A stretch of 64,000 nt of DNA from Escherichia coli (GTDB lineage: Bacteria > Pseudomonadota > Gammaproteobacteria > Enterobacterales > Enterobacteriaceae): NCBI RefSeq assembly GCF_024700885.2, contig NZ_CP117016.1. One strand, given 5' to 3'. The notes below the pieces were generated by a model, which saw only the letters and a program-made list of their open reading frames with translations, was not told the origin of the DNA and searched no databases. Within the stretch, counting starts at the first letter, position 1; every line of letters begins with the position of its first letter. The position numbers and the translations under genes were made by a program. Below are positions 50,557 through 56,546 of the stretch, one piece after another.

Positions 50557-50571
50557 ATGGAGAGAAGCACA

Positions 50572-51048
50572 ATGCAACAACTTTCCTTTCTGCCCGGAGA
50601 GATGACGCCCGGCGAGCGCAGCCTCATTCAACGGGCCCTGAAAACCCTGGACCGCCATCTTCATGAACCCGGCGTGGCCTTCACCTCCACCCGTGCGGCA
50701 CGGGAATGGCTGATTCTGAACATGGCGGGACTGGAGCGTGAAGAGTTCCGGGTGCTGTATCTGAATAACCAGAATCAGCTGATTGCCGGTGAAACCCTCT
50801 TCACCGGCACCATCAACCGCACGGAAGTCCATCCCCGGGAAGTGATTAAACGCGCCCTGTACCACAATGCCGCTGCCGTGGTACTGGCACACAATCACCC
50901 GTCCGGTGAAGTCACACCCAGTAAGGCAGACCGGCTTATCACCGAACGTCTGGTACAGGCACTGGGCCTGGTGGATATCCGGGTGCCGGACCATCTGATA
51001 GTCGGTGGCAACCAGGTTTTCTCCTTTGCCGAACATGGTCTGCTTTAA
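50572..51048 (+). CDS. yeeS: RadC-like JAB-domain protein
   Basis: JAMM motif HNHPSGEVTPSKAD; start MQQLSFLPGEM with GGAGAG RBS. Confidence 0.8.
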   Translation: MQQLSFLPGEMTPGERSLIQRALKTLDRHLHEPGVAFTSTRAAREWLILNMAGLEREEFRVLYLNNQNQLIAGETLFTGTINRTEVHPREVIKRALYHNAAAVVLAHNHPSGEVTPSKADRLITERLVQALGLVDIRVPDHLIVGGNQVFSFAEHGLL

Positions 51049-51405: not shown

Positions 51406-51774
51406 GTGTCAGACACACTCCCCGGGACAACACTTCCCGACGACAATCACGACCGCCCCTGGTGGGGGCTGCCCTGCACCGTGACGCCCTGTTTCGGGGC
51501 ACGTCTGGTGCAGGAGGGTAACCGGTTGCATTACCTTGCCGACCGCGCCGGTATCAGAGGCCTGTTCAGCGATGCAGATGCGTACCACCTGGACCAGGCC
51601 TTTCCGCTGCTGATGAAACAACTGGAACTCATGCTCACCAGCGGTGAACTGAATCCCCGCCATCAGCATACCGTCACGCTGTATGCAAAAGGGCTGACCT
51701 GCAAAGCCGATACCCTCAGCAGTTGTGGTTACGTTTATCTGGCTGTTTATCCGACGCCCGAAATGAAAAATTAA
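51406..51774 (+). CDS. cbeA: Type IV antitoxin CbeA (cytoskeleton bundling-enhancing factor)
   Basis: 122 aa from MSDTLPGTTLPDDNHDRPWWGL; immediately upstream of the cbtA remnant. Confidence 0.8.
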   Translation: MSDTLPGTTLPDDNHDRPWWGLPCTVTPCFGARLVQEGNRLHYLADRAGIRGLFSDADAYHLDQAFPLLMKQLELMLTSGELNPRHQHTVTLYAKGLTCKADTLSSCGYVYLAVYPTPEMKN

Positions 51775-51862: not shown

Positions 51863-52054
51863 ATGAAAACATTACCTGTATTACCCGGGCAGGCGGCCAG
51901 TTCTCGCCCGTCTCCTGTTGAAATCTGGCAGATACTGCTGTCCCGACTGCTGGACCAGCACTATGGCCTCACACTGAATGACACACCTTTTGCCGATGAA
52001 CGTGTGATTGAGCAGCATATTGAGGCAGGCATTTCACTGTGTGATGCGGTGAAC
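51863..52054 (+). pseudogene. cbtA: CbtA toxin gene truncated after codon 64 by insertion of a Mu-like prophage
   Basis: N-terminal 64 residues [64 protein letters not shown] are intact; the sequence then switches abruptly to a phage-end sequence starting TGATGCGCC at 52055. Confidence 0.8.
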
Positions 52055-52132
52055 TGATGCGCCGCGCGATAAATGCACTCTATCTTGTGCGATAAATGGC
52101 ATCCACGCGGCGTTTCATTATTTGAAAAAGAA

Positions 52133-52705
52133 TTACATTTCAGGTTGCGTTATGACAGTCCCAACAGGGTGATAGCGGTAGATCGTTGACAGTCCAATAT
52201 CATAGATAATTGCCAGCCGCTTTCTGTCATACCCTTTCTGGAGCAATCTTGCGATCTGCTCATGCTGCTCCTTCGTCAGTTTCGGGCGACGTCCTCCAAC
52301 TCTTCCTTGTGCTCGCGCAGCAGCCAGTCCAGCCAGCGTGCGCTCAACTATCAGTTCACGCTCCATTTCTGCCAGTGCACCCATCATATGAAAAAAGAAC
52401 CTTCCCATCGGAGTGCTGGTATCGATTGAATCCGTCAGACTGCGAAAATTGACACCTTTTGCGCGTAGCTCTTCTGTGAGAGCAATGAGGTGTTTCATTC
52501 TTCTACCCAACCGATCCAGCTTCCAGACCACCAATGTATCCCCTCTTTTAAGGCACTTTAAAGCGCGTTTCAGGCCTGGTCGTTCCGACTTGGTTCCGCT
52601 CATTTTGTCCTCAAAAATCTGTTCACATCCTGCGCACATTAATGCATTGCGTTGCAAATCTGTGTTTTGGTCATTTGTTGACACACGTATGTAGCCAATC
52701 AGCAT
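52133..52705 (-). CDS. Serine recombinase, DNA invertase of the Gin/Pin/Hin/Cin family
   Basis: 190 aa from MLIGYIRVSTNDQNTDLQRNAL (catalytic Ser in YIRVST), C-terminal HTH; AAGGGAG RBS. The ORF-track extension to 52834 is discounted. Confidence 0.8.
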   Translation of the reverse strand: MLIGYIRVSTNDQNTDLQRNALMCAGCEQIFEDKMSGTKSERPGLKRALKCLKRGDTLVVWKLDRLGRRMKHLIALTEELRAKGVNFRSLTDSIDTSTPMGRFFFHMMGALAEMERELIVERTLAGLAAARAQGRVGGRRPKLTKEQHEQIARLLQKGYDRKRLAIIYDIGLSTIYRYHPVGTVITQPEM

Positions 52706-52776
52706 TAAAAATACTCCCTTTTGAGTGGTTAAAGTACTGAGATAATGTGGGGAGGATTTGAGAGATAAACGTTGGT

Positions 52777-53205
52777 TTGGGGGAAGGCTCGGCGCTGCCC
52801 GTTGGTGTACCTGTTCCGTGGCCCACTGCCACACCGCCAGCAGGCTGGTTAAAGTGCGACGGGCGCGCCTTTACAAAAGAACAATATCCTGTTCTGGCCA
52901 GAGTCTACCCGACCCTCCGTCTTCCCGATTTGCGCGGTGAGTTTATCCGTGGATGGGACGACGGGCGAAAAGTGGATACAGGGCGCGATCTGCTTTCACG
53001 GCAGGATGGTACAAGTTTTTCTCATTACGCAGGTAATTTTGACATTGGGTCTGGTCATTCAATCAATAACTATGACCAAATCCTTGACAACCAACCTGGA
53101 TTCTCCCGTTTTTCATTTGCAGGTCCTTCGCGAGGCGATGGGGTTAATTATGTGACCATTCGTCCCCGTAACATTGCGTTTAATTACATCGTAAGGGCGG
53201 CATAG
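52777..53205 (+). other. Promoterless alternative tail-fibre C-terminal cassette B (no start codon of its own), inverted relative to the tail-fibre gene
   Basis: Begins with the same ~200-bp block (GEGSALPVGVPVPWPTATPPAGWLKCDGRAFTKEQYPVLARVYPTLRLPDLRGEFIRGWD) as the 3' part of the tail-fibre gene, then diverges and ends …RPRNIAFNYIVRAA. Confidence 0.6.
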
Positions 53206-53215
53206 AAACGTTGGT

Positions 53216-53677
53216 TTGGGGGAAGGCTCTGCATTGCCTGTTGGTGTACCGGTTCCATGGCCCACCGCCACACCGCCAGCAGGCTGGTTACAGTGCAACG
53301 GAGCTACGTTCACCAAAGAACAATATCCTGTTCTGGCCAGAGTCTACCCGACCCTCCGTCTTCCCGATTTGCGCGGTGAGTTTATCCGTGGATGGGACGG
53401 TGGTCGCAAGGTTGATACCGGGCGTGCGCTACTTTCATTTCAGGAAGGGACTATCGTATCCGGTTTTGATGATAATGATACCGGAGATATCAGTTCGCTC
53501 GGCTCTACACAATACGGATTTGGTGACGCTTTAACCTCTAATCAACTGGGGGTCTTAAATGGCAAAAAGTGGATATTTGATGCATCCTCTAAAGGTGCAC
53601 AAAGATATGACTGGTGGGCTTATGTATCAGCTCGCCCCCGCAATATCGCATTTAACTATATCGTGAGGGCGGCGTGA
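53216..53677 (+). other. Promoterless alternative tail-fibre C-terminal cassette C
   Basis: Same conserved block as cassette B with a different variable region; ends …RPRNIAFNYIVRAA. Confidence 0.6.
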
Positions 53678-53683
53678 TACCGT

Positions 53684-54298
53684 TCAGCCGGCAAGCGCCA
53701 GTGGCGCTTCCGGCCAGCTGATTTCAGGTGCCTTGCTGATATCCAGTGCGTTCAGCTCGTCGATATAATCCAGCACGGCGTTCAGTTTTGCCGTTTCTTC
53801 TGGTTTCAGACTGCGACCAGCACGCAGTTTGAGGTTGATAAGATCGACGGACGCCATCGCCTGTTTCACCCGTTGCTGGCGTTGCTGTCTGGCAACCTCC
53901 AGTTCTGCGGCTCGCTGCCGTTCAGTATCGGTTACCCACGCCTCACCGTTCCAGGTATCCCATGGCGTGGCTGGCTGTTTTGTGGTGGTGTCCGCCGGGT
54001 AATCACCCGGTTGGGTAATCAGAACGGGGTTACCGTTCTCCGTGCTGTATACCGTCTCGCCGCGGTGATCAGGCACATGCTCCCACCCGTTCAGCGTGGC
54101 AGTCCGGCAAACCACGTAACCCGAAATTGCTTCCGGCGGTGCATCGGCGCACGAATGTGCCGGAGTACCCACCCCAAGGGCGAGATACTCCACAGAGGAT
54201 GAGGTGTATTCCCGGGTTTCCTCGTCATAGTGATATACAGTGATATCGCCCGCTACAGTGGCGATACCGTTTTCATCCAGAACTGCAGTGTTACTCAT
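53684..54298 (-). CDS. Tail fibre assembly protein (Tfa; Mu U-like)
   Basis: 204 aa immediately downstream of the tail-fibre gene with ATGA overlap. Confidence 0.75.
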   Translation of the reverse strand: MSNTAVLDENGIATVAGDITVYHYDEETREYTSSSVEYLALGVGTPAHSCADAPPEAISGYVVCRTATLNGWEHVPDHRGETVYSTENGNPVLITQPGDYPADTTTKQPATPWDTWNGEAWVTDTERQRAAELEVARQQRQQRVKQAMASVDLINLKLRAGRSLKPEETAKLNAVLDYIDELNALDISKAPEISWPEAPLALAG

Positions 54299-55971
54299 TA
54301 AACTGCCCTCACAATGTAATTAAGTGCAATGCTACGGGGTCTGACAGTGATACCCTTCGCATACCCGCTTCTGATAGAGGTCAGAATAGTAGCCTGCATA
54401 CCATTGTCTGACATTGCCACGACAGGATCGCTGAATGTTGTCCCGTCCGGCATTTTAAAGCTGCCCTCACGAAGGTCTGTAATGGAATCTTCATTGTTGA
54501 ATCCCATGCCGACTATCCCCGAGGTTCCCGTAGTGTCCTGGTTATAATAATCCAGCATTGCTGTTCTTAACAGCGTTGCCCCTTGTGCGGACAGCAACTT
54601 ACGTCCTGTATCAACTTTGCGCCCGTCGTCCCATCCACGGATAAACTCACCGCGTAAATCGGGAAGACGGAGGGTCGGGTAGACTCTGGCCAGAACAGGA
54701 TATTGTTCTTTTGTAAAGGCGCGCCCGTCGCACTTTAACCAGCCTGCTGGCGGTGTGGCGGTGGGCCACGGAACAGGCACACCAACGGGTAGCGCCGAGC
54801 CTTCTCCTAAACCAAGGTAATTGAGGACATCTTTTATACTGCCCTTAGCGATAATAGCGCGACCAATAGCTGTAAGGGTTGCCAGCTCTGCGCGGTCTGC
54901 TCCGGTAAAATAAGGCAACCGATCTGCTGCAGTGGCAAGTCCTGCCAGAGCAGTGAGCGTGGCATCTGCCGGTTGTTTTCCGTTTGCCAGATCGTATGCA
55001 GCCTTGACCGCTTTCGGTGTGGCGGCCAGTATTTCAGACGTGCTGTTGATGGCACTGCTCAATTGTACGGTGCCTTTTGCCGTCAGCGAGGCAGCAGGCA
55101 CTCCCGTTATCTGACTCCACGGGTGAGTGTGGCTGACGGGCGCCTTGCCGGCTGCAAGGTCGTATGCAGCCTTGACCGCCTTCGGCGTGGCAGCCTCAGT
55201 TTCTGATTGACTGTCCGTGGCGCTGCTCAGTTGTACGGTGCCTTTTGCCGTCAGCGAGGCAGCAGGCACTCCCGTTATCTGACTCCACGGGTGAGTGTGG
55301 CTGACGGGCGCCTTGCCGGCTGCAAGGTCGTATGCAGCCTTGACGGCCTTTGGTGTGGCGGCCAGCGTTTCAGAGGTGCTGTTGGTGTCACTGCTCAATT
55401 GTACGGTGCCTTTTGCCGTCAGCGAGGCAGCAGGCACTCCCGTTATCTGACTCCACGGGTGAGTGTGGCTGACGGGCGCCTTGCCGGCTGCAAGGTCGTA
55501 TGCAGCCTTGACCGCCTTCGGCGTGGCAGCCTCAGTTTCTGATTGACTGTCCGTGGCGCTGCTCAGTTGTACGGTGCCTTTTGCCGTCAGCGAGGCAGCA
55601 GGCACTCCCGTTATCTGACTCCACGGGTGAGTATGGCTGACGGGGGCCTTGCCGGCAGCCAGGTCATATGCAGCCTTGACGGCCTTTGGTGTGGCGGCCA
55701 GCGTTTCAGAGGTGCTGTTGGTGGCACTGCTCAGTTGGGTGAACCCCTTAGCTGTCAGTGTCGCGTCCGGGTGGTTACGGGAACGTACGTGTTCAGCCAG
55801 TGACTGTGCGGCTTCCTCCGTTTTTTTCTTCAGCCATTTCGTCCTGTTTGCCAGTTGCCGGGGGGCTCGATTTGATATCCCGTCTGCACCACCCAGAACC
55901 GGATCTGATGTCTCCAGTTGATAGATATTTTCTTCCCACTTTTCTGTTTCATTCAGGTTTCCCATAATCAA
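54298..55971 (-). CDS. Tail fibre protein (Mu S-like) with internal tandem repeats and collar-type C-terminus
   Basis: 557 aa with five copies of a 56-aa repeat (TAKGTVQLSS…AATPKAVKAAYDLAAGKAPVSHTHPWSQITGVPAASL) and a C-terminus sharing the GEGSALPVGVPVPWP block with cassettes B and C. Confidence 0.85.
   Translation of the reverse strand: MIMGNLNETEKWEENIYQLETSDPVLGGADGISNRAPRQLANRTKWLKKKTEEAAQSLAEHVRSRNHPDATLTAKGFTQLSSATNSTSETLAATPKAVKAAYDLAAGKAPVSHTHPWSQITGVPAASLTAKGTVQLSSATDSQSETEAATPKAVKAAYDLAAGKAPVSHTHPWSQITGVPAASLTAKGTVQLSSDTNSTSETLAATPKAVKAAYDLAAGKAPVSHTHPWSQITGVPAASLTAKGTVQLSSATDSQSETEAATPKAVKAAYDLAAGKAPVSHTHPWSQITGVPAASLTAKGTVQLSSAINSTSEILAATPKAVKAAYDLANGKQPADATLTALAGLATAADRLPYFTGADRAELATLTAIGRAIIAKGSIKDVLNYLGLGEGSALPVGVPVPWPTATPPAGWLKCDGRAFTKEQYPVLARVYPTLRLPDLRGEFIRGWDDGRKVDTGRKLLSAQGATLLRTAMLDYYNQDTTGTSGIVGMGFNNEDSITDLREGSFKMPDGTTFSDPVVAMSDNGMQATILTSIRSGYAKGITVRPRSIALNYIVRAV
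54980..55810 (-). repeat. Intragenic tandem repeat, 168-bp unit, about 5 copies (336-bp higher-order alternation)
   Basis: The motif ttgtacggtgccttttgccgtcagcgaggcagc recurs at 55063, 55231, 55399 and 55567, with a diverged copy near 55735. Confidence 0.8.
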
Positions 55972-56546
55972 CTGCTCCCGTGGTTATAACTGCCATCATG
56001 GATGGCGGTATTGTTATAGCGAATGGCCACAGACTGATACTCCAGGCTGGCCAGATGGCAGCGGGCCGGTGCAAATGCAGCGAGCGTCTGACGCAGCATC
56101 GCGGCCTGATCGTTAGTAATGGGCTGTTTCAGAATAACGCGATAAACTGCCCAAGCGGCTGCATCTCCATGAACAAACAGTCCGTTATAGCTGCGATTGC
56201 CGTCGTAACTGAGACGACCTGTGCCTTCAATCAGATCCACTTCACCAAAGCCAAAACGGCGGATAACTTCCCGGATTGACCACGGCGTCCCTTTATACCG
56301 GTGCAGTTCGATGGCTGCTTTTATAAGCATGCGGCGAACATCGTCCGATTCCGCCAGCTCCCAGCCATCGCCAGACAGTGAGAACTGCTCGCCCAGCCAT
56401 GGCAGCGCGGAACTGTCGACGATATCGACGAGAAAGACCATCAGTACGCTCAGGTCGATGTTATCCAGCCGTCCTGCCAGTCTTCCCAGCGTCCTGAGAC
56501 TGATATCACCCTCAAGCGGTGGCGGGAGTTGTAATGGCTCAGTCAT
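55968..56546 (-). CDS. Tail protein (Mu gp48 / P2 gpI-like)
   Basis: 192 aa between the baseplate J-like gene and the tail fibre; start overlaps upstream gene. Confidence 0.65.
   Translation of the reverse strand: MTEPLQLPPPLEGDISLRTLGRLAGRLDNIDLSVLMVFLVDIVDSSALPWLGEQFSLSGDGWELAESDDVRRMLIKAAIELHRYKGTPWSIREVIRRFGFGEVDLIEGTGRLSYDGNRSYNGLFVHGDAAAWAVYRVILKQPITNDQAAMLRQTLAAFAPARCHLASLEYQSVAIRYNNTAIHDGSYNHGSS

Follow-up and report, generated by a model that had tools for sequence, protein, structure and literature searches.

An active three-site Gin-family tail-fibre switch with three collar-type tips and a single tfa gene in a Mu-like prophage of Escherichia coli

In phage Mu, two crossover sites give two states of the tail fibre, and each variable part has its own chaperone gene, with the pairs S-U and S'-U' arranged as mirror images. 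The 5' coding stretch of Mu gin carries a Fis-dependent recombinational enhancer. In the R64 shufflon, multi-site inversion swaps the C-terminal segments of the adhesin PilV; its enzyme, the tyrosine recombinase Rci, acts on sfx sites that are asymmetric, and both enzyme and sites are unrelated to those described here. The Min system of p15B and P1-like phage-plasmids has more than two crossover sites, tandem tip cassettes in the same orientation and many isomers; p15B is said to have six mix sites, reportedly in work of Sandmeier et al. from 1992 and 1994. Here we analyse a locus at positions 52133 to 55971 of a 64-kb stretch of Escherichia coli DNA (the window), in which a Gin-family serine DNA invertase adjoins two silent fibre-tip cassettes, a single tail fibre assembly gene (tfa) and a tail-fibre gene. 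The locus is a real, active three-site tail-fibre switch and amounts, within a Mu-like prophage, to a minimal multiple-inversion array of the Min type. Its best explanation, in which we have high confidence, is the host-range switch of a Mu-like transposable E. coli prophage, the same element as Phi2 of EC958/ST131.

The locus and this kind of system are already known, contrary to the novelty implied by the original prediction that drew attention to this DNA. The main facts were published in 2014, when Forde et al. (PLoS One, PMC4134206) described the locus as prophage Phi2 of EC958, with the crossover sites TCCTCAATTACCTTGGTTTAGGAGAA and GAGAGATAAACGTTGGTTTGGGGGAA and an invertible segment of 2067 bp, and found alternative PacBio contigs from a single culture that show the inversion. 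Only the two outer sites are listed there, and the model is a generic mirror image with a cognate minor fibre gene; the internal site, the four isomers and the absence of a cognate tfa are not described. The window copy shares with Phi2 the same invertase protein and both outer crossover sites, letter for letter, but it lies in cbtA, while Phi2 adjoins aroA and has two fewer 56-aa repeats in the fibre shaft. A preprint on ST131 wound isolates reports that the fibre genes of these prophages have undergone inversions and a 'translocation', and the four-isomer scheme given below would explain the latter.

A further close relative in behaviour is FRphi, an Enterobacter phage (Nat Microbiol 2026, PMC13418256). 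As in our locus, a Gin recombinase produces three C-terminal isoforms of the fibre, there in proportions of 50:25:25, which is the ratio predicted by a three-site, four-isomer scheme with one tip present in two isomers. Deletion of gin locks the state, and related loci have up to six paralogs. A single isoform was infective on the tested host, and the paper makes no mention of tfa or of a chaperone. FRphi is a different phage of a different host, and we liken it to the window on its published description. To this earlier work we add a third, internal crossover site, a map of four isomers, evidence from populations of genomes and the question of how the fibres fold when tfa is antisense.

All the parts described in the original prediction are present, essentially where it had placed them. 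The invertase (52133-52705, minus strand, 190 aa) had been called Gin/Pin-type; its residues 1-181, which include MLIGY(I/V)RVSTNDQ and the Ser9 context MLIGYIRVSTNDQ, share 77% identity with Mu Gin. It matches PHROG 125 'DNA invertase' with E = 1e-94 and is a small serine recombinase like those of the Gin/Hin/Cin/Pin (Din) systems. Its gene shares about 79% identity with Mu gin in the first 240 nt of coding sequence, and site, spacer and start codon are collinear with those of Mu, the spacer (52706-52759) having the same length as that between gixR and gin. This spacer should hold the invertase promoter; a promoter scan of both strands from 52000 to 56100 gave no consensus sigma-70 site. Across loci L011-L090, with invertases 84-100% identical, the stretch of 57 nt that separates the invertase start from its nearest site is constant in length and falls into at least three unrelated sequence families, i.e. 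its sequence is not conserved across invertase lineages of the same architecture.

The two cassettes and the fibre gene share a block of 229 nt. The original prediction was right about the block but put its length at about 200 nt. The copies at 52769-52997 (93% identity) and 53208-53436 (86%) are complementary to 54590-54818, far above chance, and a repeat finder reports the two plus-strand copies as direct repeats of one another. At each boundary the homology begins abruptly at a 26-bp element built as 12 bp, a TT core and 12 bp, which agrees with the imperfect 12-bp half-sites around a 2-bp core of Mu gixL and gixR. SiteB (52760-52785, plus strand, core at 52772-52773) reads GAGAGATAAACG TT GGTTTGGGGGAA, and siteC (53199-53224, plus strand, core at 53211-53212), whose left half overlaps the end of cassette B, reads GGCATAGAAACG TT GGTTTGGGGGAA. 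SiteH lies within the fibre gene (54827-54802 on the minus strand, core at 54815-54814), reads TCCTCAATTACC TT GGTTTAGGAGAA and has the opposite orientation to siteB and siteC. Gix-like sites sharing one 2-bp core, which had been anticipated at the three boundaries, are thus present. SiteB and siteH are the 'Phi2_3prime' and 'Phi2_5prime' of Forde et al. 2014. Between the cores lie two invertible segments, S1 (52773-53211, 439 bp), which holds cassette B, and S2 (53212-54814, 1603 bp), which holds cassette C, tfa and the variable end of the fibre gene; S1 and S2 together correspond to the published 2067-bp segment, in which siteC is not listed.

Cassettes B and C are 3' gene segments that lack a promoter and read in frame from the core onward. 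Their open reading frames (ORFs) were listed at 52777-53205 and 53216-53677, in tandem on the plus strand, but the TTG 'starts' are spurious and stem from the site sequence (GGT TTG GGG GAA), and the coding frame starts at the GGT right after the TT core. Cassette B therefore covers 52774-53205 (143 aa, stop TAG) and cassette C 53213-53677 (154 aa, stop TGA). Both are silent collar-type tips that match the tail collar fibre family PHROG 523, with E = 1e-61 and E = 1.5e-66, respectively. The fibre ORF (54298-55971, minus strand, 555/557 aa) consists of a constant 5' part, Hc (54816-55965, the likely start being the ATG at 55965), and the currently expressed variable 3' part, Hv (54298-54813, 171 aa), which is also a collar-type tip. 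The single tfa gene (53684-54298, minus strand, 204 aa) lies directly downstream of Hv, and neither cassette is followed by a tfa of its own, as had been proposed.

The likeness to Mu is close in several respects: the related invertase, the 12 + 2 + 12 sites, the equal spacing from site to invertase start, one site at the boundary between the constant and variable parts of the fibre gene, and an invertase that is the last gene before the right end of the prophage. The original prediction of a Mu G-segment geometry with two extra cassettes and only one tfa proved correct. However, the locus is not a two-state mirror image in the manner of the Mu G-segment or the P1 C-segment, as it has three sites, two segments and one tfa. 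Where Mu has two sites and two states, the window has three sites, four isomers and three tips, and it also differs from Mu in the collar-type tip, in P2-like baseplate genes and in the lack of com/mom.

To look for recombination at these sites, recombinant junction queries were assembled with the crossover at the TT core and compared with 5,426 complete E. coli genomes, counting the genomes with at least 80% query coverage. The constant part joined to cassette B (Hc|B) is present in 158 genomes and Hc|C in 166, so that each of the alternative junctions proposed in the original prediction occurs in more than 150 genomes. The invertase|C junction is found in 181 genomes, the junction of the B end with Hv in 185 and the parental junction of the B end with C in 204. 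The top matches are single contiguous pieces with 99.7-100.0% identity. The counts take in related prophages, i.e. C-only and D-only variants and P1-like plasmids and arrays, and the head, being present three times, may let pieces join.

Direct inspection of individual loci shows all four isomers that are predicted for three sites, and the locus hence has more than two isomers from at least three sites of mixed orientation, as in Min-type systems. Isomer P, with Hc-Hv followed by tfa in sense, is present in the window and in EC958. In isomer 2, seen in p4A, Hc-C is followed by tfa, Hv and B in antisense. In isomer 3, seen in p11A, Hc-B is followed by C in sense and then by tfa and Hv in antisense. 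Isomer 4 is found in U15A, AR_0086 and the IMG/VR locus L011; here Hc-B, the Hv fragment and tfa are all in sense and C lies beside the invertase. S2 is inverted in isomers 2 and 3, while S1 is inverted and moved beside Hc in isomers 3 and 4. Similarly named isolates are in different states (p11A versus p11B, and 1435/1437 versus 1436/1438). Cassette B is in frame with Hc in p11A, U15A and AR_0086, and cassette C in p4A, and the fused fibre ORFs are intact, with 417 aa for Hc-B and 428 aa for Hc-C (p4A). The three-tip switch of host-range type that the original prediction had put forward is therefore upheld, inverted isoforms and conserved sites both having been found.

As a mechanism, we propose that the Gin-family invertase would recombine the three 26-bp gix-like sites through their common TT core. 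With siteH at the constant/variable boundary of the fibre gene, and siteB and siteC facing the other way at the heads of the silent cassettes, inversions between sites of opposite orientation would interconvert isomers P, 2, 3 and 4. The predicted products are three fibres with a common shaft and different gp37-like collar tips, which would serve as a host-range switch.

The inverted repeats of 229 bp are long and 86-93% identical, and inversion might in principle occur by RecA-dependent homologous recombination between them. Homologous recombination between the heads does happen, as shown by a mosaic tip in locus L013. The position of the exchange, however, points to the invertase. In EC958, p4A, p11A, U15A, AR_0086 and L011 the left halves, labelled z, a and t1, were found joined to the right halves of Hv, B and C. 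The left half of siteB is joined to the heads of Hv, B or C in different genomes, and that of siteC to the heads of C or Hv. In all inspected loci the half-sites are exchanged exactly at TT, and the head polymorphisms travel with their own variable part; the exchange falls within the 7 nt TTGGTTT, which include the core, in six independent genomes. This is what site-specific rather than RecA-mediated recombination produces. Chimeras crossed at the core match with 100.0% identity over 627 and 731 nt, and deletion of gin abolished the rearrangement in FRphi (PMC13418256). Given the exchange point at the core, the exact chimera matches and the FRphi deletion, we rejected RecA-mediated inversion, which we regard as highly improbable.

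Two relatives, L013 (5306-5835) and L014, have C as their only alternative cassette. Their expressed tip is a mosaic, in which the first 70-145 nt carry the polymorphisms of a B-type head and the remainder is Hv. A mosaic of this form points to loss of the B segment from isomer 4, whose directly repeated heads would have undergone homologous recombination.

Loss of cassettes of this kind is one of the observations that favour a reading of the locus as inert duplications or a decaying shufflon, where the arrangements would be fixed variants of lineages with no ongoing switching. Another is that seven of the 174 collar cassettes that we found behind a gix-like site, in 81 sources, are broken. 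The other 167 (96%) are intact, all of them with a TT core. Comparison with homologous cassettes elsewhere gives a dN/dS of 0.07-0.09 for the variable part of cassette B and 0.11-0.15 for that of cassette C, and these values together with the mostly intact cassettes show that the cassettes are kept by selection. Moreover, the four isomers occur among near-identical ST131 prophages, the similarly named sister isolates included, and PacBio reads from one EC958 culture hold both orientations (PMC4134206). The decaying shufflon, one of the two readings offered in the original prediction, is accordingly rejected in view of the activity, the intact fused ORFs, the intact cassettes and the purifying selection; we consider it the least probable of all the explanations treated here, next to excluded.

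Some points weigh against the reading of the locus as an active host-range switch. Isomer frequencies are not derivable from the junction counts, which are mutually inconsistent as simple sums. We infer both the requirement for Fis and the enhancer and, for all three fibres, that the tips alter receptor specificity. The prophage itself may be non-inducible.

The layout with one tfa and several cassettes is ordinary for this invertase lineage. The IMG/VR set contained 80 loci with invertases 84-100% identical, and 41 of them had at least 3 kb upstream of the invertase. Among these 41, a single tfa with 2-8 collar tips was found in 25 and the canonical mirror image with two tfa genes in 11, so one tfa with 1-7 collar cassettes lacking a tfa is the commonest arrangement near close relatives of the invertase. 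Contigs of 65-97 kb in this set have up to eight collar cassettes with one tfa. At the other end of the range, the closely related phage 503046 carries just one alternative cassette, whose tip is of a fourth type, D; it has no second tfa, and neither do the C-only loci L013 and L014.

With its tandem same-orientation cassettes the window resembles the Min systems, but its array is minimal, with only two silent cassettes, and lies in a Mu-like chromosomal prophage. The P1-like vB_EcoM-673R5 has a cassette similar to B (72% aa identity) beside the invertase and tandem cassettes that are each preceded by AAACGTTGGTTTGGGGGAA. In the same phage (L007, 6031-8501) the invertase is split (Hin1/Hin2), and several cassettes and the fibre gene have frameshifts, which may be sequencing errors or real decay.

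The single tfa raises the question of how the three tips fold. Tfa belongs to the Pfam family Caudo_TAP (PF02413, E = 8e-27, residues 79-199) and to PHROG 105 (E = 3e-87). Its gene directly follows the fibre gene, its ATG overlapping the fibre stop codon (TAATG), with a GAGGG Shine-Dalgarno sequence 7 nt upstream of the ATG. By family and position Tfa is a probable fibre chaperone. It has no significant relative in the PDB by sequence and no detectable similarity to Mu U. Hv, B and C all fall into tail-collar fibre PHROGs and resemble the receptor-binding tip of T4 gp37 (2XGF), with an N-terminal collar and a C-terminal NIAFNYIVR strand; Hv, B, C and D all retain the collar/NIAFNYIVR-like motif and are thus gp37-like collar tips. 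For its folding, the T4 gp37 tip requires gp38 or lambda Tfa plus gp57A.

According to the original prediction, tfa would be antisense to the newly fused fibre after any inversion. This is true of the single-inversion isomers 2 and 3; in isomer 4 (U15A, AR_0086 and L011), the product of two inversions, tfa is in sense as it is in P. Cassette C and tfa are convergent on the same segment, and Hc-C therefore never has tfa downstream in sense. Their stop codons are 6 nt apart (53675-53686), which leaves no space for a terminator. Late transcription through Hc-C would cross tfa in antisense and then enter the invertase gene in sense.

Our leading, though tentative, reading is that the single Tfa is a chaperone shared by all the collar tips and co-transcribed with the fibre only in isomers P and 4; we rate its chance at slightly below even. 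On this reading the fibres of virions from isomers 2 and 3 should fold poorly, unless an unmapped promoter transcribes tfa there. In favour of a shared Tfa, the B-type tips of phages mEp043 and 500465-2 directly precede Tfa proteins that are 39% and 52% identical to that of the window. Six of 20 tip types occur both linked to a tfa and without one, and the median tip length is 158 aa for linked and 158.5 aa for unlinked tips. Three observations count against it. Among the 81 sources, 13 of 14 B-type and all nine C-type tips have no tfa downstream, while all 11 Hv-type tips do; purifying selection acts on C-type tips even though Hc-C never has tfa in sense at this locus; and the promoter scan gave no promoter for tfa in isomers 2 and 3.

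These observations fit an alternative that was already part of the original prediction, in which the B and C tips fold without Tfa, so that virions of all four isomers would be functional and Hv alone would depend on tfa. The single-cassette relatives with D or C, which likewise manage with one tfa, and the translational coupling of tfa to Hv by the TAATG overlap point in the same direction. But the homologous Tfa proteins after B-type tips, the tip types that are both linked and unlinked, with an equal length distribution, and the gp37-like collar fold common to all tips, which in T4 is dependent on chaperones, speak against it. Linked and tfa-less tips do not form separate classes, and to call the tips Tfa-independent was an overstatement; we consider this alternative rather unlikely.

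Tfa might instead be expressed in every isomer, from a rightward promoter in or near the spacer between the invertase and siteB or within the segment, and translated from its own Shine-Dalgarno sequence. The GAGGG before tfa would suit this, as would the orientation of Hv-tfa, which runs away from the invertase in both isomers 2 and 3, and at 52721-52748 a weak match, TTGAGT-16 nt-TAATGT, can be seen by eye. The promoter scan did not return this or any other site, however, and the spacer is not conserved across lineages with the same architecture, which makes constant expression of tfa an improbable explanation.

Returning to the shared chaperone, it is conceivable, if doubtful, that in this switch and the many larger arrays resembling it, where the lone chaperone gene turns over together with its segment, inversion sets both the tip that is fused and whether Tfa is co-transcribed, or else that a large class of collar tips needs no dedicated chaperone.

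The surrounding sequence is that of a Mu-like prophage which is 99.1% identical to the EC958/ST131 element over 3.9 kb. The head genes are Mu-like (DUF1320, Gp37) and the tail genes P2-like; the baseplate genes I, J, W, V and D, of P2 type, come next to the fibre ORF. The invertase occupies the position of gin in Mu, without com/mom, and the right end of the prophage (52055-52132, TGATGCGCCGCGCGATAAATGCAC...) extends 78 bp past its stop codon, begins with TG and is similar to the right end of Mu. This end lies against unrelated host DNA in the two genomes, the aroA intergenic region in EC958 and the inside of cbtA in the window, which fits a transposable Mu-like phage. In the window the right end (TGATGCGCC...) is inserted in the toxin gene cbtA (51863-52057) of a CP4-like island; the Pfam CbtA_toxin match ends at model position 64 of 112, the gene being cut short by the prophage. 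The antitoxin gene cbeA (51406-51774) and radC (50557-51048) upstream of it are intact. NCBIfam gave no specific family for the invertase or Tfa, and in the left flank it named only RadC.

The fibre ORF contains five Phage_fiber_2 repeats followed by a C-terminal Collar domain (PF07484, E = 1e-14). The shaft is encoded by 168-nt tandem repeats at 54977-55780, a direct repeat family corresponding to the 56-aa Phage_fiber_2 unit. Compared with EC958, the window shaft has two more units (555 versus 443 aa), and shaft length thus varies among otherwise near-identical prophages.

RefSeq/PGAP splits the recombined fibre genes into 'incomplete' pseudogene fragments (L002 3045-4094, L003 3045-4127 and L004 6323-7372). 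The fused fibre genes of p11A, p4A and U15A are annotated in this way despite their intact ORFs, and pseudogene annotation at invertible fibre loci looks like a systematic artefact.

Invertible fibre tips set the host range of temperate phages, and in E. coli genomes they repeatedly give rise to misassembly and mis-annotation. The question of one tfa and several tips bears on the engineering of host range in phages and tailocins with collar-type tips. Should the tips depend on Tfa, virions from half of the isomers would be fibre-defective, which would place an ON/OFF layer above host-range switching. Such a layer, if it exists, could explain why a single isoform of FRphi is infective.

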